Shown piece after piece: positions 4,472-24,668 of a stretch of DNA of 64,000 nucleotides (within the stretch, counting starts at the first letter, position 1; each line of letters begins with the position of its first letter). The notes beneath the pieces are model-generated. The model worked only from the letters and a program-made list of their open reading frames with translations. It made no database searches and was not told the origin of the DNA. Made by a program: the position numbers and the translations under genes. Where the stretch lies: NCBI GenBank assembly GCA_049602735.1, contig JBMYRW010000007.1, positions 4,370 through 68,369 of the forward strand, read 5' to 3'. Source of the stretch: Thermoplasmatota archaeon. GTDB lineage: Archaea; Thermoplasmatota; E2; JACPAO01; JAHFTW01.

Positions 4472-4545
4472 TGGGACCTGCCGGATTTGAACCGACGACC
4501 AGCGGGTTATGAGCCCGCCGCTCCACCAGGCTAAGCTAAGGTCCC
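4472..4545 (-). tRNA. tRNA-Met (anticodon CAT; Ile2/agmatidine type cannot be excluded)
   Basis: The reverse complement is GGGACCTTAGCTTAGCCTGGTGGAGCGGCGGGCTCATAACCCGCTGGTCGTCGGTTCAAATCCGGCAGGTCCCA. It has a 7-bp acceptor stem GGGACCT/AGGTCCC, anticodon stem GCGGG/CCCGC with loop CTCATAA, and T arm GTCGG-TTCAAAT-CCGGC. There is no encoded CCA. Confidence 0.85.
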
Positions 4546-17179: not shown

Positions 17180-17833
17180 GTGAAGGCGGCGGTCCTCGAT
17201 TTTGACGGCGTGGTGGCCCAGAGCATGGAACAGCACGCCGAAGCGTACCGCCTGGCCCTTGCGCCCCTTGGCGTCGACGTGAGCCAGCAGGCGGTCTTCG
17301 AACGTGAAGGGGCGCGCAGCGAGACGATCATCGCGGACCTCCTTGCGGCGGCGGGTCGCCCAATCCCGGACGAACAAGAGATCGGGCGCCTGGCGGACAC
17401 GAAGCAACGGCACTTCCGTGAACTGGGCGAGGTGCGGCTCTATCCCGGGGCCCAGCAGATGGTCGAAGCCCTGGCCGCCAGCCCTCTGAAGCTGGCCCTG
17501 GTGACCGGCACGCGCCGCAGCAACCTGGAACGCCTCATCCCGGACCTCCTGCCCCTGTTCGATGCGGTGGCGGCGCAGGAGGACTACACGCACGACAAGC
17601 CCCACCCTGAGCCGTACGCCAACGCCGCGAGCGCGCTGGGCCTCGCTCGAGCGGACTGCATGGCCTTGGAGAACGCGGTGCGGGGCGTCGAGAGTGCCCG
17701 AGCTGCAGGCTACGGCCAGGTCTTCGGCATCGCGACCACCATGCCCGCCGAGCGCCTCCTTGATGCCGGGGCCGCGCGCGTCGTGGCCGACCAGGCTGAA
17801 GCGACCGCCCTCTTGCTGGATCAGGCCGCGTGA
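17180..17833 (+). CDS. HAD-superfamily hydrolase (beta-phosphoglucomutase-like subfamily IA)
   Basis: Motif I DFDGVV, motif II LVTGT and motif IV ENAVRGVESARAAG. GTG start. Confidence 0.8.
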   Translation: MKAAVLDFDGVVAQSMEQHAEAYRLALAPLGVDVSQQAVFEREGARSETIIADLLAAAGRPIPDEQEIGRLADTKQRHFRELGEVRLYPGAQQMVEALAASPLKLALVTGTRRSNLERLIPDLLPLFDAVAAQEDYTHDKPHPEPYANAASALGLARADCMALENAVRGVESARAAGYGQVFGIATTMPAERLLDAGAARVVADQAEATALLLDQAA

Positions 17834-18318
17834 CCCGCGCGCCGGTGGTGGGCGTCATGGGTGGCGGGAAGGCTGCACCGGCGGTCACGCAGCTCGCCGA
17901 AGCACTAGGCGCCGCCGTCGCCCGCCGGGGCTGGTGGCTGCTGACGGGTGGCCGCGATGCCGGCGTCATGGCGGCGGCGACCCGAGGGGCCAAGCACGAG
18001 GGCGGCCGCGTGGTCGGCGTCCTTCCTGGTCGCCGGGGCGACGGCGGCGAGGCTCCGGGCCTGGACCTGGCGATCTACACCGGTATGGGGGATGCGCGCA
18101 ACGTGGTCAACGTGCTCTCCAGCGACGTCGTCCTGGCCCTGCCGGGCGGCGCGGGGACGCTCTCGGAGGTGGCGTTGGCGGTGAAGTCCGGCATCCCCGT
18201 GGCCCTTGTCGTGCCCGATGGCGCACCCGCATGGGCGGCCGAGCTTGGCGTGCCGTGCCTTCCCGACGTGGCTGGCGCCGTCGCGTGGGTCGACGAGCGG
18301 CTTCAGGCGAAGAGCTGA
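17830..18318 (+). CDS. TIGR00725/LOG-like Rossmann protein
   Basis: VGVMGGG...LLTGGRDAGVMAAATRGAKHEGGRVVGVLP...PGGAGTLSE is typical of the LOG / lysine-decarboxylase-like family. It overlaps the HAD stop (GTGA). Confidence 0.6.
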   Translation: MTRAPVVGVMGGGKAAPAVTQLAEALGAAVARRGWWLLTGGRDAGVMAAATRGAKHEGGRVVGVLPGRRGDGGEAPGLDLAIYTGMGDARNVVNVLSSDVVLALPGGAGTLSEVALAVKSGIPVALVVPDGAPAWAAELGVPCLPDVAGAVAWVDERLQAKS

Positions 18319-19436
18319 CGCGCGGCGGCCACATCGGCGGGTCGCTCGTTGGGGTCGTCGCGGCATAGGGCGCTCACGATCTTCTGGTCCTCCTCCGGTA
18401 CACCCGCGTCCTTCAGGGCTGCCAGGAGTTCGTCGTGTTCCCAGCCCCGCTGCGGCCGTTGGCCCATGCAGAGGAACGCGTACAGCCGGCCGAAATTGCA
18501 CAGGTCGCTGCGCACGGTGCCACGGGCACCAAGACCGTCGTCCTCCTTGCGCCGCATCTCAGGGGCGATGTACCCCGGCGTGCCGAGTGCCGCCCGACTG
18601 CGCACACAGCCATCCACAAGGGGTCGCGCGACGCCGACATCGATGACCTCCAAGTGGCCGTCGTCGCGGGCGATGAAGTTGCCCGGCGCCTGATCGAGGA
18701 GCAGGAAGCCCTGCTCGTGGCAGTGGCCAAGGATGTCGAGGATCTGCGTGGCCCAAGCGAGCCGCTTCGACCGGTCATCGGTCACGGGCGGGGCCGCCTT
18801 GTTGAGCGGCTCGCCGACGGCGTAGCTGCGCACCATGTGCAGAAGGCCGCGATGGGTGAAGCCGTCCACCAGGCGCGGGATGAGGGGATGGTCGAGGCGG
18901 CCCAGGATCGCCATCTCGATCGCCGTCGCCTTCTGGCCGGTGCGGATGGAGTTGAGGACGCCCCAGGCATGCTTGACGATCACTTCCTGCCCGGTCTGTC
19001 GGTCCTTGCACAGGTGGGCGATGCCCATGGAGCCACGCCCAATCTCCCGGATGCGCTCGTAGCGGCCGGCGAAGACCTCGGGCGGCTCCTCCAGGGGAAG
19101 CTCGAGGTAGCCCAGGTTGCGCAGGCGCCAGATGTACTTCCGGGCGAGCTTGCGCTTGTCGCGGCTGCGCAGGATGCGCTCTGTGGGGTAGTCCGGCATC
19201 GCTTTGCCCATCTCTTCCAGCGTGGCGCCTTGGGCCAGGCCATCGATGACGTCGAGGCAACTGGCGTGGACGCGTTGCCAGGTGTCCGAGCCGTCCCAGT
19301 AGACCTCGCCCCAGGAAGGTTCGCCTTCGAGGCGGCGCGTCGGGGGGAGGCGGTCGATCACGGGCGGCGGGAAGAAGCGCTCCGGCTCCTCCACGTCGGG
19401 GACCTCCAGGCCGAGTTGCTCCGTCAGGCTGCGCAC
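18303..19436 (-). CDS. Ser/Thr protein kinase with N-terminal PqqD(RRE)-like winged-helix region
   Basis: Kinase motifs: Gly-loop IGRGSMG, VIVKH Lys, catalytic LLLDQAPGN (non-RD), DVG (DFG-like) and APE. Residues ~43-112 (EVYWDGSDTWQRVHASCLDVIDGLAQGATLEEMGKAM...KLARKYIWRLRNLGYLEL) follow the PqqD-like pattern. The GTG start overlaps the pmbA stop by 13 nt. Confidence 0.75.
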   Translation of the reverse strand: MRSLTEQLGLEVPDVEEPERFFPPPVIDRLPPTRRLEGEPSWGEVYWDGSDTWQRVHASCLDVIDGLAQGATLEEMGKAMPDYPTERILRSRDKRKLARKYIWRLRNLGYLELPLEEPPEVFAGRYERIREIGRGSMGIAHLCKDRQTGQEVIVKHAWGVLNSIRTGQKATAIEMAILGRLDHPLIPRLVDGFTHRGLLHMVRSYAVGEPLNKAAPPVTDDRSKRLAWATQILDILGHCHEQGFLLLDQAPGNFIARDDGHLEVIDVGVARPLVDGCVRSRAALGTPGYIAPEMRRKEDDGLGARGTVRSDLCNFGRLYAFLCMGQRPQRGWEHDELLAALKDAGVPEEDQKIVSALCRDDPNERPADVAAARQLFA

Positions 19437-20767
19437 GACACCCCTCCCCCCGAGAGCGCCGTGAAGGTTCCGCTTCGCGCCTCCACCTGTTCGCGCCCCA
19501 CGCCGTGCAGGTCCCGCATCAGGTCGTGGACGTTGCCGCCGATCGTCGTATGGGGCAGCGCGTGGACCACTTCGCCCTTCTCGATGAGGAAGCCGAACGG
19601 TGCCACGACGCTGAAGTCGCCCGTCGTCCGGTTGCTGCTGAAGAAGCCGGCCAGAGGATCGGTGACCAGGACGGCGCGGTCTTCGGCCGCGATGAGCTCC
19701 TCCAGGCTCTTGTCGCCACCACCCACCACGGGATGGACGGGTGCCACGCCGACGCCGCTGCTCCAGCCGCCGGCGCGCAGGCCCCGGCCGTTGCTGCCGG
19801 TCCCCGCTGCGGCCCCAGACCGGGTGTCATGGAGCACGTTCCGCAGGAGGCCATCCGTGACGAGGTCCAACGGATCGCACGGTGTCCCTTCATGGTCGAA
19901 CCGCCGGACGCGGTGGCCAGCGGGGGCGTCGCGGATGTCCAGAAGCGGCGAAGCCACCTGTTCGCCCAAGCGCCCCGCGAAGGGGCCCTTGCCCGTCTCG
20001 ACGAGCCGCCCGGAAAGGGGGTGGAGGAACATGGAGACGAACTGGCCGGCCGCTTGAGGTGCCAGCACCACGTCCGTGACGGGGCGACCAAGGGGTTTGT
20101 GCTGGAGGGCATCTGCGGTGCGACGGGCCAGGGCGCCACCCACGCGTTCGATCTCCGACATCTGGAGTCCTTCGCGGGCGGCCAGCAGGTCCATGCCGGT
20201 CCGCTGGGCCTGCGTGCCCACCTCGCCGGCGCGCGTGTCCAGCAGCATCCATTCCAAGGACGTCTCGTCCCACGCCTGGTGCCCCGTGTCGTTGGCGACC
20301 GCGAAGCGACTGCGGCTGGAGGCGACCGTGACCGCCCGGTAGGTGCAGGCCTCCTGGTCAAGCGCCGCCATCGCCGCCGCGCCAAGCGCCTCCAAGCGCG
20401 CTGGGTCAGGGTCCCGGAACACTTCCGGCGTCGCCGAGGGCGTGTCACTCGACCTTGTGGCCGGTGCGGCGAAGCCGGCAAACGCCACATCCACCGGGGC
20501 CTGACGGGCGGCCAGGCACGCCTCATCCACCAGTTCCGCGATGCGGCCGGAGCCAGAACTGGACGCCTGGCCGGGCCGGCCGTCCACCACGACGCGCAGG
20601 GCCATCCCCAGGCTGTGGCTTGCCTTCGGCGCCGTGAAGCCCTCCCGGCACACCCAGTTGAGCGACCGCCCCTCCTGGATGAACGCCTCGGCGTGGTCGG
20701 CGCCCGCGGCCAGCGCCCCCTCGACGCTCCGTTCGGCGTGGTCCTGCAGCTCTTCGATGGGCCTCAT
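19424..20767 (-). CDS. pmbA: PmbA/TldE metalloprotease partner subunit
   Basis: TldD/PmbA family fold with no HExxxH motif. The start MRPIEELQDHAERSVE at 20767 gives an ATGA overlap with the tldD stop, so the track N-terminal extension to 20857 is rejected. Confidence 0.8.
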   Translation of the reverse strand: MRPIEELQDHAERSVEGALAAGADHAEAFIQEGRSLNWVCREGFTAPKASHSLGMALRVVVDGRPGQASSSGSGRIAELVDEACLAARQAPVDVAFAGFAAPATRSSDTPSATPEVFRDPDPARLEALGAAAMAALDQEACTYRAVTVASSRSRFAVANDTGHQAWDETSLEWMLLDTRAGEVGTQAQRTGMDLLAAREGLQMSEIERVGGALARRTADALQHKPLGRPVTDVVLAPQAAGQFVSMFLHPLSGRLVETGKGPFAGRLGEQVASPLLDIRDAPAGHRVRRFDHEGTPCDPLDLVTDGLLRNVLHDTRSGAAAGTGSNGRGLRAGGWSSGVGVAPVHPVVGGGDKSLEELIAAEDRAVLVTDPLAGFFSSNRTTGDFSVVAPFGFLIEKGEVVHALPHTTIGGNVHDLMRDLHGVGREQVEARSGTFTALSGGGVSCAA

Positions 20768-22185
20768 GCCACCTGCCCACCGACCAGGGCCTCCGAGACG
20801 AGGACCTGCGGGCCGCCCGTGCCCACGTGGATGAGCGACTGGTCCCATTTGCCACATCCACCGAAGAACGTGGTGCGCAACCGGAAGTCGTCGGTGATCG
20901 CTTCGATGTTGCCGAAGAAGTCGAGGATGTTGCCGTTGATGGTGGCCATCTTGATGGGGTGGGACAATTCGCCGTCCTCCACCCAGTAGCCGCCTTCGGA
21001 CGTGAACGTGAAGGAGCCGTCGGAGCGGGGCGCCCCGCCGCGTCCCCCTTGCAGGTAGACGCCGGTGCCCAGGGCCTCCAGTGCCTCCTCTTGGCTGTGG
21101 TCGCCGGGCTCCATGAACGTGTTGCGCATGCGGACGATGGGCGCGTGGCTGACGTTGAGCGCCCTGGCGCTCCCCGTGGCCGCCACGTCCTGGTCGGAAG
21201 CCGAGTCCCGGCCGTGCAGGTACGCCGTCAGGGCGCCTTGGTCCACCAGGGTCACGTCGCGGCCCGGCGTCCCCTCCTGGTCGAACGGCACCACCACGCC
21301 ATGCTTGACCGGCCCAGGCATCCGTGGCACATCCCGGATCGTCACGTCACGGGGGGCCAGTCGTTCACCCAGCCGGTCCTGGAGGACGCTCCAGCCGGGG
21401 GCGACCACGTCGTACTCCGTCAAATGGCCGAAGCTCTCGTGCACCATGATGCCGGTGAGCTTGTTGTCGCAGAGGGTCCGGTAGCGGCCGGCCGTGATAG
21501 GCTTCGCCTCCAGGTCGACCTTCGCGGCGCGCCCGGCCGCCCTGCCGAGCGCCTCGGGGCCCCCTTCGTCCTCGTAGTCGCCGAAGCCCAGCTCGCCGCC
21601 GCGCCATTCGTTGCCGCTGCCATGGCGCGCACCATCACGGGCGAGCGTCTGGACGAGCAATGTGGAGAGCAGGTTCTCGGAGACCACGTGGCCTCCCGTC
21701 GAGTTGGCCACGACGGTCAGACCGCGCCGGGCACCGAAGCCCACCTGGGCCACCTGCCCAGGGACCTCTTCAAGCGCCGCCTCCTCCGCGCGCCGAAGCA
21801 GCCCGTAGGCCGCTTCGTCGGGGACGTCGTGGGGGTGTTCGCGGACATCTGGTGTGTGACGCCCCTTGTGGTCATGGAGGTCAGGAGCAAAGCCGTCCCA
21901 TCCCTGCCTGGCGTTCGCCTGGGCCAAGCGGCCGGCCTGGTCGACCAGGTCCCGGAGCGCATGGTGGGTCAGTTCGTTCGTGTAAGCGTACGCCGACGCG
22001 GCGCCCTCGAAGGCGCGGATGCCGATGCCGCCCACGTGGCTACGCCCCGCCGATCGGAGTTGGCCGTTGCGCAGCACCCATCGCCGGTCCTCTTGGATGT
22101 CGAGCCGTACCTCGAAGGCGGAGAGTCGTTGCTGCGCCAGTTCGACGGCTCGCTCGGTCCAGGATTCAGCGTCAGTGGGCTCCAC
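20764..22185 (-). CDS. tldD: TldD metalloprotease
   Basis: HExxxH-type motif GIMVHESFGHLTE. The start is set at GTG 22185 (VEPTDAESWTERAVELAQ), which has AAGGAG upstream. The track extension to 22404 has no homology-like content. Confidence 0.8.
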   Translation of the reverse strand: MEPTDAESWTERAVELAQQRLSAFEVRLDIQEDRRWVLRNGQLRSAGRSHVGGIGIRAFEGAASAYAYTNELTHHALRDLVDQAGRLAQANARQGWDGFAPDLHDHKGRHTPDVREHPHDVPDEAAYGLLRRAEEAALEEVPGQVAQVGFGARRGLTVVANSTGGHVVSENLLSTLLVQTLARDGARHGSGNEWRGGELGFGDYEDEGGPEALGRAAGRAAKVDLEAKPITAGRYRTLCDNKLTGIMVHESFGHLTEYDVVAPGWSVLQDRLGERLAPRDVTIRDVPRMPGPVKHGVVVPFDQEGTPGRDVTLVDQGALTAYLHGRDSASDQDVAATGSARALNVSHAPIVRMRNTFMEPGDHSQEEALEALGTGVYLQGGRGGAPRSDGSFTFTSEGGYWVEDGELSHPIKMATINGNILDFFGNIEAITDDFRLRTTFFGGCGKWDQSLIHVGTGGPQVLVSEALVGGQVA

Positions 22186-22203
22186 GGCAGGCTCCTTGGA
22201 ACG

Positions 22204-22270
22204 GAAGGTTGTGGGTTCAAAAGTGGGGGGTAGAGAGAGGGTAGAGGGAAAGTTTGGGGTCAAAACGGCA
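22204..22270 (-). terminator. CT-rich tract with T-runs downstream of the 36-aa ORF
   Basis: On the minus strand it reads ccgttttgaccccaaactttccctctaccctctctctaccccccacttttgaaccc, lying between the small ORF stop and the tldD start. Confidence 0.4.
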
Positions 22271-22282
22271 ACGTGCCGAGGC

Positions 22283-22393
22283 TTAGATAGCCTCGTCAGC
22301 GGTGGTACCGTTCGTGTCGTCCGCGCCCGTGGAGGCACCGGACGTGTCCAGGTCACCCAGCTCGGGCAGTTCGGGGATGTCGACCAGCAGCAT
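22283..22393 (-). CDS. Unannotated 36-aa acidic Ser/Thr-rich peptide (candidate precursor peptide)
   Basis: MLLVDIPELPELGDLDTSGASTGADDTNGTTADEAI. AAGGAGGTGA ends 7 nt upstream of the ATG. About 30 of 36 codons end in G/C. It has its own AT-rich upstream region and a CT-rich tract downstream. The peptide has 9 acidic and 0 basic residues. Confidence 0.6.
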   Translation of the reverse strand: MLLVDIPELPELGDLDTSGASTGADDTNGTTADEAI

Positions 22394-22470
22394 TTGTTGT
22401 TCACCTCCTTGAGGAGTTCCGGGGGCAGCAGCCAGCTGCTCCCGCGGCAAACCGGACCATTGCCCTACAG

Positions 22471-22479
22471 TAGATAAAG
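22471..22479 (-). promoter_or_regulatory. TATA-like element upstream of the 36-aa ORF
   Basis: On the minus strand it reads ctttatcta, about 80 nt upstream of the ATG, in the only AT-rich stretch between the ABC stop and the peptide ORF. Confidence 0.35.
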
Positions 22480-22509
22480 AGTCTCAAGCGTTACCGGTTT
22501 ATCGAACTT

Positions 22510-22525
22510 TGAACAATCCTGTTCA
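22510..22525. promoter_or_regulatory. Inverted repeat TGAACA-N4-TGTTCA upstream of the TATA-like element
   Basis: tgaacaatcctgttca has perfect 6-nt arms and lies about 30 nt upstream (sense orientation) of the TATA-like element. Confidence 0.4.
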
Positions 22526-22565
22526 TTGGAAACAAGTCCGTGGGGAGAGGAGCCGGCGAGGGGGC

Positions 22566-24668
22566 TCATGCAGCGCCTGCCTGGACCGTCTCCTGACGGA
22601 ACGCCACCGGCGTCGCACCCTGTTCGTGCAGCCACCCATCGAGCCGCTCTAGGTTGTCCACGGGGTCCTCCAGCAGGATGTGCAGGGCCCGGCCCCTTCC
22701 GGTGGCCGCCTTGACGCCGGGCGCCGCGCGGAGAGCAGCCACCAGGCCGGCCAGGGGTTTGGCGAGGGTGACGTGGATCCAATCCGCTTCGGTGTCGACA
22801 TCCGCTGGTTCTGGTTCGGCCGCCGTCGCATCATGCCCGAGGTCCTGCAGGCGGACGTAGCGGGCGTAGGCGCCGCCCTTGGCCAACAGGGCAGCGTGGC
22901 GCCCCTGTTCCACGATGCGCCCCTTCTCCAGGACGACGATCATGTCGGCGTCGCGGACGGTGGAGAGCCGGTGGGCGACGGCGACCACGGTGCGGTCGCG
23001 GCTCACACGGTCGATCGCTTCCTGCACGAGCCGCTCGGTGGCCGTGTCGAGGGCGCTGGTCGCCTCGTCGAGGATGAGCAGGTCAGGGTCGGCCAGGATG
23101 GCGCGGGCGATGGCGAGGCGCTGGGCCTGCCCGCCGGACAAACGGACGCCGCGGTCGCCGATGACCGTGTCGTAGCCGTCAGGGAGCTCCTGGATGAAGG
23201 CGTGGGCGTTGGCCTGCTTGGCCGCCTCCATCACTTGGGCGTCCGTGGCCTCCGGGTTGCCGAAGCGCAGGTTGTCCGCCACGGAGGCGTGGAAGAGGAA
23301 GGTGTCCTGGGAGACCACGGCGACGCGGCGACGCCAGTCCTTGATGCGGAAGCGTCGCAGGTCGGTGCCGTCCACGGTGACGCGCCCTTCGGTGGGGTCG
23401 AAGAGGCGGGTGAGCAGGTCGATGATCGTGGACTTGCCGGCGCCGCTGCCGCCTACCAGGGCGACCTTCTGACCCTTGTTGATGGTGAGGTCGATGCCGT
23501 CGAGGACCGCCGGTTCGTCCGCCTCGTAGTGGAACCGGATGCCCTCCAGTCGCACGGCCTGCCGGAGCCCAGGGAACGCCTGGTCGCCGTCGGCGAGGTA
23601 GCTCTTGTCCTTCCGTTCCATGAAGTGGACGATCGCTTCCAGGTACGGCAGCTCCGATTCCAGCGTGGCCCGCAGGCGGGCATAGTCGCCGCTACGGCTG
23701 AGCAGGGGAAGCAGCAGCACGCTGAAGAGACCCAGGATGACGAGCCAGTCCCCGTCGGAGCGGTCCAGCAGCAACGTGGCACCCACCAGCACCGTGGCCA
23801 CGAGGGCGTTGCTGGCGATGAGGTACAAAGCAGGCACAAGGGCGCTGATGCGGGCGCGGCGGAACTGGTCCCGCTGCATCTGCGTCAGTTCACCCATGAA
23901 CCGCGTCCGGGCCTCCTCTTCGCGGCCGAACTGATGGATGAGCTTCATGCCCTGCAGGGACTCCAGGCTGACCTGGTGGAGGCGCAGGCGGCTTTCGCGG
24001 ATGCGGTGGCTGAGCGCCCGGATGAACACCTGCAATTTGCCGAGGCTCAGGTTGACGATGATCGCCAGTCCCACGGCCAACAGGGTGAGCTGCCAGCTCG
24101 TGAGCGCCATGGTGACAAAGACCGCCAGGAAGCTCGTGGAGGTGCGTACGGCGTTGAGCAGCTCGTTGACGATGCGGGTGGAATGGCTGGGGAACGAGTG
24201 CATCAACGTGAACAGGTTCGCCTGCTTCTCCTTGTTGATGAAGCGCTGCTCCACGCCCACCACGTCATCGAAGACCATGGCGCGCAGGTCGCGGCCCACC
24301 TGGATGCGGATGAGGTGGGCGACGCGGCCGTACCCGTAGCTGACGGCGGCCTTCAGGAGCGCGATCGCGAAGAACAGGAGCGCCACCAATTGCACCCGCT
24401 CCACCACGGTGAGGCCTTCGAAGAGGGGCAGCAACGCGGCGATGGGGGTGTCCTGCGCGAGGCTGCCGTCGCTGCCGCGCAACGTGGCCAAGAGCGGCAC
24501 GAACACCATGAAGTTGGCCACCTCGAGGGCGGTCAACAGGAGGATCAACGCGAAGGCGGCCGCCAAGAGTAGAGGGTGGCGCAGCACCACCCGCATCAGG
24601 AAACCAAGGCTCTGGCGACGGGGCAGCGGCTGATCGGTTCCCATGTGTTCTTCGCGGACCTTCTTCAT
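22566..24668 (-). CDS. ABC exporter (fused TMD-NBD, MsbA-like) with ~90-aa C-terminal extra domain
   Basis: Six-TM ABC membrane domain, Walker A GGSGAGKST, signature LSGGQAQR and Walker B LLILDEATSALD. An extra C-terminal WIHVTLAKPLAGLVAALRAAPGVKAATGRGRALHILLEDPVDNLERLDGWLHEQGATPVAFRQ follows. The start is uncertain (ATG 24668 or 24644; the track start at 24722 overlaps the gcvT upstream region). Confidence 0.85.
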   Translation of the reverse strand: MKKVREEHMGTDQPLPRRQSLGFLMRVVLRHPLLLAAAFALILLLTALEVANFMVFVPLLATLRGSDGSLAQDTPIAALLPLFEGLTVVERVQLVALLFFAIALLKAAVSYGYGRVAHLIRIQVGRDLRAMVFDDVVGVEQRFINKEKQANLFTLMHSFPSHSTRIVNELLNAVRTSTSFLAVFVTMALTSWQLTLLAVGLAIIVNLSLGKLQVFIRALSHRIRESRLRLHQVSLESLQGMKLIHQFGREEEARTRFMGELTQMQRDQFRRARISALVPALYLIASNALVATVLVGATLLLDRSDGDWLVILGLFSVLLLPLLSRSGDYARLRATLESELPYLEAIVHFMERKDKSYLADGDQAFPGLRQAVRLEGIRFHYEADEPAVLDGIDLTINKGQKVALVGGSGAGKSTIIDLLTRLFDPTEGRVTVDGTDLRRFRIKDWRRRVAVVSQDTFLFHASVADNLRFGNPEATDAQVMEAAKQANAHAFIQELPDGYDTVIGDRGVRLSGGQAQRLAIARAILADPDLLILDEATSALDTATERLVQEAIDRVSRDRTVVAVAHRLSTVRDADMIVVLEKGRIVEQGRHAALLAKGGAYARYVRLQDLGHDATAAEPEPADVDTEADWIHVTLAKPLAGLVAALRAAPGVKAATGRGRALHILLEDPVDNLERLDGWLHEQGATPVAFRQETVQAGAA

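Follow-up and report, generated by a model that had tools for sequence, protein, structure and literature searches.

Organization of the locus

The locus considered here lies within a 64-kb stretch of DNA (hereafter, the window; GC content ~69%) from the metagenome-assembled genome of a soil Thermoplasmatota archaeon. Between positions 18303 and 24644, the minus strand carries five consecutive genes, which encode a fused transmembrane domain–nucleotide-binding domain (TMD-NBD) ABC exporter, a 36-residue peptide, the protease subunits TldD and PmbA, and a Ser/Thr kinase with an additional N-terminal domain. On balance, we favour the view that these genes make up a peptide maturation and export module specific to a Thermoplasmatota lineage, which resembles the pathways to peptides that are made by ribosomes and modified after translation (RiPPs). 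A sequence-only reading of the same DNA had arrived at a RiPP-like interpretation, and its account of the five genes is confirmed in every sequence detail, the Pfam domains and the overlaps read off the sequence being in agreement with it. Moreover, sequence comparison indicates that the arrangement exceeds chance, because the gene set recurs across many related loci.

The TldD gene (20764..22185, minus strand; 473 aa) starts with a GTG codon after AAGGAG and is predicted to encode the catalytic subunit of an M103 metalloprotease: the product contains the Pfam domains PmbA_TldD_1st, PmbA_TldD_2nd and PmbA_TldD_3rd, scores 203 bits against the NCBIfam archaeal TldD family, and presents the motif HESFGH at residue 249. 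The non-catalytic partner, PmbA/TldE (19424..20767, minus strand; 447 aa), has the domains PmbA_TldD_1st and PmbA_TldD_3rd, and HExxxH was not found in its sequence. The two genes therefore have the make-up of an M103 heterodimer, an adjacent paralogous pair with HExxxH in TldD alone, and the same distribution of the motif is seen in E. coli TldD/E (PMC10885120). The ATG of pmbA overlaps the tldD stop codon (ATGA), as is directly visible in the sequence and as had been claimed in support of their coupling.

The kinase gene (18303-19436, minus strand; 377 aa) in turn begins with a GTG at position 19436, and overlaps the pmbA stop by 13 nt; this, too, was read directly and is as previously described. 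Its product can be divided into an RRE (RiPP recognition element)-like, PqqD-type winged-helix domain (residues 1-125; 19062..19436, minus strand), composed of three strands followed by three helices, and a Hanks-type, non-RD Ser/Thr kinase domain (residues 126-377; 18303..19061, minus strand). The identity of the latter is secured by a Pfam Pkinase match spanning residues 126-366 (5e-22), and the catalytic residues are all present, namely, the Gly-rich loop, the Lys (in VVKH), the Glu of helix αC, the Asp and Asn (LLD..P.N), and the DxG and APE motifs. The same catalytic set is kept in the kinase paralogues, including the second kinase of related loci (kinase 2).

The fused TMD-NBD architecture proposed for the ABC exporter (22566..24644, minus strand; 692 aa as called, with the reading frame open to 24722) is borne out by Pfam matches to ABC_membrane and ABC_tran. 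A C39 peptidase domain, the hallmark of the peptidase-containing ABC transporters, was not found in it by Pfam, and its best NCBIfam matches, the HepA family and MsbA, both lie below the cut-offs. The exporter additionally has a C-terminal extension of ~90 aa beyond the nucleotide-binding domain (22566-22840; residues ~600-692), for which there is no family match; a tblastn match in a related locus, L098, extends to residue 656, such that the extension is partly common to both.

A short acidic peptide encoded upstream of tldD

The 36-codon open reading frame (ORF; 22283..22393, minus strand) encodes MLLVDIPELPELGDLDTSGASTGADDTNGTTADEAI, a peptide with neither Cys nor basic residues. A Shine-Dalgarno (SD)-like sequence, AAGGAGGTGA (22401..22410, minus strand), is located 7 nt ahead of its ATG, and a TATA-like box, TTTATCTA (22471..22478, minus strand), ~80 nt upstream of it, whereas a pyrimidine-rich tract with T runs (22205..22265, minus strand) lies between the peptide gene and tldD. 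The small ORF, its SD sequence, an AT-rich promoter-like region and a CT-rich tract had all been predicted, and each is present at its predicted site; an independent gene call (Logan) also includes the ORF.

Five loci of this plan have DNA available upstream of tldD (the window, L006, L098, L106 and L107), and all five carry an ORF of 28-36 codons ~100 nt upstream of tldD. Besides the window peptide, the products are MMLGNLPSLPAIGDLDSDGASDTTGDEA (L106), MMLIDLPTLDGLGDLDGTDASDSTGDPTETG (L006), MKLANTPTIDAALDLDGTSTTSGGDGTTTGDTESEL (L098) and M(NM)RAILVVTSSLLEGEETTTDGVTESDSASDEIDL (L107). In four of the five, the first 16 residues (MLLVDIPELPELGDLD in the window peptide) align without gaps and share the motif MxLxxxPxLxxLxDLD. 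The remainder (in the window, residues 17-36, TSGASTGADDTNGTTADEAI, an acidic segment rich in Ser, Thr and Gly) differs in both sequence and length from locus to locus, with Ser, Thr, Asp/Glu and Gly abundant in every case. All five peptides lack Cys and have at most one basic residue each. Ribosomal precursor peptides show this leader/core pattern, in which a conserved N-terminal segment precedes a variable remainder, and, judged by it, the small ORF would be a precursor-like peptide gene. In its general description, a RiPP cluster has a short precursor gene beside the enzymes, its leader conserved and its core variable, and such a gene is present in these five loci.

The elements surrounding the ORF are also retained: in a DNA alignment, the order is the same at each locus, namely, TATA-like box, GGAGGTGA-type SD sequence, ORF and C/T-rich tract. 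The SD position is occupied by GGAGGTGA in L106, L006 and L107, and by GGAGGTAA in L098. The TATA-like box is probably an archaeal promoter element, and in L106, L006 and L098 its aligned counterpart is TATTATGTATATA or TTCATATAG; in these same three loci, comparable C/T-rich tracts with TTTT are found 3' of the ORF, which could possibly serve as a partial terminator or attenuator. Additionally, ~100 nt upstream of the peptide ORF are near-identical in L106 (6700-6830) and L006 (1340-1480), consisting of a TATA-like ATTATGTATATACC and then a GC-rich segment; since conservation here is far above that of the flanking DNA, this stretch suggests a regulated promoter or a 5' leader.

At 69% GC, long spurious ORFs are common, and it could be argued that the small ORF is merely such a frame, and that the genes around it are adjacent by chance. 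We find this scarcely credible. The ORF is conserved in position, length, SD sequence and amino-acid motif, although the kinases of the loci concerned are only 29-42% identical; gene order is kept in ~12 contigs; and, over the 16 codons of the leader, the differences at codon positions 1, 2 and 3 number 34, 29 and 48, respectively, with 22 codon differences being synonymous only, and stops present in both alternative frames. The conserved gene order, the ORF alignment and the codon-position pattern together refute chance adjacency, and the conservation of the ORF upstream of tldD in syntenic loci, with a coding-type substitution pattern, is what the sequence-only reading had called for. Using a peptide profile, no second copy was found in the window or in the other loci examined; a padded profile searched against 5.8 billion predicted proteins recovered only three already known peptides, and the exact-sequence clusters of the peptides are singletons.

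The N-terminal domain of the kinase

Residues 1-125 of the kinase have no Pfam match. The AlphaFold2 model of the full-length protein (mean predicted local distance difference test score 90.7) contains, in this region, three strands (residues 33-35, 42-47 and 52-57) and, after them, three helices (58-68, 73-79 and 94-107), and the same fold is obtained when the domain is modelled alone. A Foldseek search with the full-length model returned kinase structures only, and the N-domain model was therefore used as a query by itself. Against the PDB, ranks 1-3 are then occupied by TbiB1, a lasso-peptide RRE crystallized with its leader peptide (E 0.011-0.025, probability 1.0, target-normalized TM score 0.62), and LynD, TigE, TruD, CteB and TbtB, all of them RRE-containing RiPP enzymes, are also within the top 17. 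Moreover, a profile of 25 N-domain sequences, compared with the PDB sequences, aligns with TbiB1 over its whole length and in register (E 0.19; hhalign probability 79%). Three strands and three helices that superpose on known RREs are thus seen in the model, and the scores, individually weak but concordant, support the assignment of an RRE-type fold to the predicted N-domain structure.

When searched against 1.84 billion representative proteins, the N-domain profile gave ~25 clusters, in which the N-domain is followed by the kinase in a protein of 317-386 aa, bar one tandem fusion; with matches to giant proteins set aside, the N-domain is seen only fused to this kinase family. The giant-protein matches appear to be spurious, the three that were scanned being repeat proteins (two cadherin-like/Big_9 and one LRR/FG-GAP). 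The RRE-kinase genes are often amplified, with up to three tandem paralogues per contig (L004, 3-2598; L007, 15-1918), these two short contigs carrying tandem kinases only; the upstream gene of L004 was considered as a PmbA C-terminus and rejected, as it is the third tandem kinase. An extra RRE-kinase copy is present past the ABC gene in L006 (7553-8248), and a 676-aa protein, P0096, consists of two complete RRE-kinase units fused together.

Conservation and rearrangement of the gene set

TldD, PmbA, the kinase and the ABC exporter co-occur in L006, L097-L101, L103-L107 and L085, with the 13-nt pmbA/kinase overlap preserved in nearly all of them. The adjacency recurs in ~12 Thermoplasmatota contigs, and in at least three unrelated genomic contexts, and is thus not peculiar to the genome in which it was first noticed. 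The module usually runs from the peptide through TldD, PmbA, kinase 1 (which shows the 13-nt overlap) and kinase 2 to a convergent ABC exporter. A rearranged version is found in the window, with one kinase and with the ABC gene upstream on the same strand; relative to L106, the module is inverted and kinase 2 has been lost, but its parts are still together. Complete copies are found in L098 and L107; L006 is without kinase 2 only, and L106 without most of the ABC gene only, its contig ending 116 codons into the convergent gene. The copies in L097, L099, L100, L101, L103-L105 and L085 are cut by contig ends.

ABC orthologues 47-67% identical to that of the window were located beside the module by tblastn in L006, L097, L098, L099, L101 and L103, and the L107 module is also flanked by an ABC exporter according to Pfam annotation (the contexts of L106 and L107 fall outside the tblastn summary and are taken from gene annotation). 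The ABC gene stays with the module, although its position and strand vary. The module is bordered by genes for HAD, CGI-121 and Hel308 in the window and in L106; on the short contig of L006, HAD is the only one seen. Its neighbours in L098 are a Trp/Tyr-tRNA synthetase and an aminotransferase, and those in L107 are HxlR and an RNB exoribonuclease. Two TldD homologues (59% and 45% identity) that were picked solely on the length of their contigs are both accompanied by the whole module, and a scan of JGI metagenomes with the kinase added one family member, L085. The TldD homologues with at least 41% identity fall into ~60 clusters, and all those with a given source name are from Thermoplasmatota, whereas the named homologues with 40% identity or less come from other archaeal phyla.

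A more conventional explanation would be that TldD/PmbA is a housekeeping, peptide-degrading protease, that the kinase serves in signalling, with DNA or a partner protein as the ligand of its winged-helix N-domain, that the small ORF either encodes an unrelated acidic protein or is a regulatory upstream ORF, and that the ABC exporter transports something else. We regard this as unlikely, albeit worth taking seriously, and a number of observations do weigh against the RiPP-like interpretation. TldD/E is widespread and has roles outside RiPP pathways (PMC10885120); the TldD clade described here resembles the orthologous set of its lineage, and TldD/PmbA may, therefore, be the housekeeping pair of these organisms. 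Locus L008 (27-1412 and 4350-5195) encodes a DrrA-type ABC ATPase, TldD, PmbA, an ABC-2 permease and the kinase, such that the fused exporter is replaced; a peptide ORF was searched for upstream of tldD in L008 and not found, and, on the sequence, the precursor of this locus, if any, must sit elsewhere. It also appears that the kinase can persist without the protease, because L002 has only a dead PmbA remnant and L102 an orphan kinase, the latter next to an ORF of 66 aa for a putative ribbon-helix-helix regulator. The remnant in L002 (9753-10013; also seen in L003 and L005) comprises 86 aa of the PmbA C-terminus and keeps the 13-nt overlap with the start of kinase 1; although L002 is otherwise syntenic with L098, it has lost the peptide, TldD, kinase 2 and the ABC exporter, and kinase 1 alone is intact, which marks L002, by its gene content, as a decaying copy of an L098-type module. 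Additionally, the leader of the L107 peptide is divergent, the five known peptide sequences are a small sample, and acidic peptides with multiple phosphates have not been established as a type among exported natural products.

Similar reservations apply to the N-domain: PF05402 (PqqD) is unmatched at E ≤10 for 25 of 25 N-domains, with scattered chance matches only, the E-values from Foldseek (0.011) are weak, and DNA can also be a ligand of winged helices. Because PF05402 is unmatched, the RRE assignment is based on the fold and on the weak profile match; of the earlier claim that the kinase begins with a PqqD-type RRE, the fold and its structural relationships have stood up, and the match to the family hidden Markov model has not materialized.

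Nevertheless, the conventional explanation sits poorly with the fact that TldD/PmbA is accompanied through rearrangements, and in differing contexts, by the peptide and the kinases as well as by one and the same ABC orthologue. Moreover, the best structural matches of the N-domain are leader-binding RREs and not DNA-binding winged helices, and the peptide displays the leader/core conservation of a precursor. The RiPP-like interpretation is preferred because the peptide, kinases and ABC exporter are conserved, the motifs are intact, the kinase domain scores highest against LanL, itself a kinase that modifies peptides, and the N-domain has an RRE-type fold; the three computational checks that were run, on the small ORF, the N-domain fold and the gene adjacency, support it.

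Candidate modifying enzymes and neighbouring genes

Among the genes called within ~10 kb on each side in the window, L098 and L107, there is no lyase (LanL- or HopA1-type), cyclase, YcaO or dehydrogenase. The sole radical-SAM genes nearby are an ELP3-type gene at the edge of the window locus and a wyosine-type gene in L107; the earlier statement that YcaO, LanC, lyase and radical-SAM genes are all absent from the vicinity holds for YcaO, cyclase and lyase and, these two genes apart, for radical SAM.

These absences bear on the possibility that phosphorylation is an activation step, and that an unrecognized lyase, either a second function of PmbA, TldD or kinase 2 or encoded elsewhere, goes on to generate dehydroalanine or dehydrobutyrine. 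In favour of such a pathway stands the best NCBIfam match of the kinase: LanL, a class IV lanthionine synthetase, scores 96 bits (the cut-off is 650, and the kinase part only is aligned), and PknB 54 bits. Most loci also have two kinase paralogues; non-peptidase members of the TldD/E family are, moreover, among the cases cited in PMC10885120. We consider it quite unlikely, nonetheless, given that no LanL-type or HopA1-type lyase or cyclase gene is found within the ~10 kb either side and that kinase 2 keeps the full kinase catalytic set. The 377-aa kinase itself consists of the N-domain and the kinase domain only, with no phospho-Ser/Thr lyase or cyclase domain in it, and the lack of Cys in all five peptides leaves no means of forming a thioether ring. 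A lanthipeptide product is accordingly rejected, because the peptides are without Cys and there is no lyase (nor a cyclase), and persistent phosphorylation is more likely as the outcome than elimination by an unrecognized enzyme.

The kinase domain also matches the PADLOC families mad6 and PD-T4-6 at ~80 bits, and E. coli TldD/E degrades the antitoxin CcdA, according to references given in PMC10885120; the module could, in principle, be one of anti-phage defence or of a toxin-antitoxin-like type, with cellular or viral proteins as the targets of the kinase and the protease. This is very unlikely. In PADLOC, the generic kinase domain alone is matched, with scores that do not exceed that of Pfam Pkinase, neither TldD nor PmbA matches a defence family there, no mobile-element context was seen, and the module sits among housekeeping genes. 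As PADLOC gave generic kinase and ATPase domain matches only, a role in defence was rejected.

Some further features of the surrounding DNA may be recorded. In one locus, L107 (17607-21455), the region downstream of the ABC exporter encodes two proteins, of 412 and 441 aa, for which Pfam gives no match, together with an Rce1-like/CPBP intramembrane protease, a family that is often linked to bacteriocin self-immunity. In L098 (1-3605) and L002 (1-6553), the DNA a few kb away from the module carries a giant ORF (~2,400-2,500 aa, with no Pfam match on record) and a STAND-NTPase-like gene. In the window, a SLOG cluster-4 gene (LDcluster4, lysine-decarboxylase-like; 17830-18318, plus strand) is convergent with the kinase gene, with which it shares a 3' overlap of 16 nt. 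This SLOG gene is probably not a member of the module, since there is no SLOG gene at the corresponding position of L106 and L006. Rfam found no RNA family in the module region, the sole match above the gathering threshold in the window being a tRNA (4472-4545, minus strand).

A putative maturation and export pathway

In the pathway that we propose, the 36-aa product of the small ORF would be the precursor, of which the N-terminal 16 residues would act as a leader and be bound by the RRE-like N-domain of the kinase. Phosphorylation of Ser and Thr residues in the acidic C-terminal core, by the Hanks-type kinase domain tethered to it, would come next, after which the co-translated TldD/PmbA heterodimer would trim the leader from its N-terminus until the modified core blocks entry, in the manner of a pencil sharpener, and the ABC exporter would secrete the product. 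The T-rich tract after the peptide gene would permit an excess of precursor transcript, and the translational coupling of tldD, pmbA and the kinase gene fits either a complex or a fixed stoichiometry of the encoded proteins. A leader peptidase and an exporter encoded within the cluster are to be expected of a RiPP pathway, and both appear to be present here, their activities being assigned by homology; likewise, we infer the binding, phosphorylation, cleavage and export steps, and any biological role of the product.

The trimming step is modelled on E. coli TldD/E, into which the N-terminus of the substrate is threaded and trimmed until the modified core blocks entry, an unmodified peptide not being a proper substrate (PMC10885120). 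Several likenesses to microcin B17 follow the same lines: the HExxxH motif is confined to TldD, the precursor is short, ribosomal and provided with an N-terminal leader, and there is a dedicated ABC exporter. However, the E. coli protease genes are outside the microcin gene cluster and the azoles are formed by McbBCD (YcaO-type), whereas in the window, which is from an archaeal host, the protease genes are embedded in the cluster and translationally coupled to a kinase, and there is no cyclodehydratase. With the class III/IV lanthipeptide synthetases (LanKC and LanL), the proposed pathway would share a Hanks-type Ser/Thr kinase acting on a ribosomal peptide, in keeping with the LanL match; it differs in that the kinase has no lyase or cyclase domain, the peptides have no Cys, and leader recognition is proposed to occur via an N-terminal RRE. 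Class III/IV synthetases are not known to contain an RRE. CurKC is described as using a separate leader recognition domain (PMC9828337), and, at least for the class III synthetase structures considered here, the descriptions pair the kinase domain with a distinct domain for leader recognition, and not with an RRE.

As for the N-domain, it resembles TbiB1 (PDB codes: 5v1u and 5v1v) in the succession of three strands and three helices, in being matched to it above all other structures and in the in-register profile alignment, and it departs from the PqqD-type RREs in having no PF05402 match and in being fused to a protein kinase. Phosphorylated lasso peptides (paeninodin-type) are made with an HPr-kinase-like kinase from clusters that include an RRE and an ABC exporter, and they require a lasso cyclase and a B2 protease. 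A ribosomal peptide with phosphate as the final modification would be common to both systems, although it is only proposed for the window; the kinases belong to different families (HPr kinase versus Hanks type), and the lasso cyclase and B2 protease are absent in the window. TldD/E genes inside a peptide-modification cluster are also a feature of the pearlin (ammosamide) and biphenomycin clusters (PMC10885120, PMC12257519, PMC12707348), which are bacterial, employ PEARL or MNIO enzymes and contain no kinase; cluster-embedded TldD/E has been reported for these two groups only. Our literature search found no paper describing the combination of peptide, TldD, PmbA, RRE-kinase and ABC exporter, and no report of an RRE fused to a eukaryotic-type protein kinase. 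The parts are, therefore, known singly (RRE, Hanks-type kinase, TldD/E and ABC exporter), and their combination is new to the searched literature.

A more ambitious version of this proposal, which we put forward as a possibility rather than as an expectation, is that the module defines a new, archaea-specific RiPP class: Hanks-type kinases fused to an RRE, the first to be known, would place several phosphates on short acidic peptides, and these would be released by a TldD/E encoded in the cluster, with the phosphate-laden core as the stop signal, and exported, for example, as metal-binding, mineral-interacting or signalling phosphopeptides. As natural products go, the highly acidic phosphopeptide that is predicted to be made and exported would be of an unusual type. 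If the RRE-kinase functions in the way put forward here, leader-guided catalysis would be extended to the protein kinases, and the enzyme would offer a compact tool for the site-directed phosphorylation of peptides.

Few archaeal RiPP pathways have been characterized beyond genome mining, and TldD/PmbA ranks with the most widespread of those proteases for which little is known about the natural substrates. With TldD/PmbA paired in one cluster with a cognate peptide and a modifying enzyme, a directly testable substrate is at hand, and, with five to six genes in ~6.4 kb, the module is small enough to be fit for heterologous expression. If the new-class proposal is true, it would reveal a native substrate for the widespread and poorly understood archaeal TldD/PmbA.

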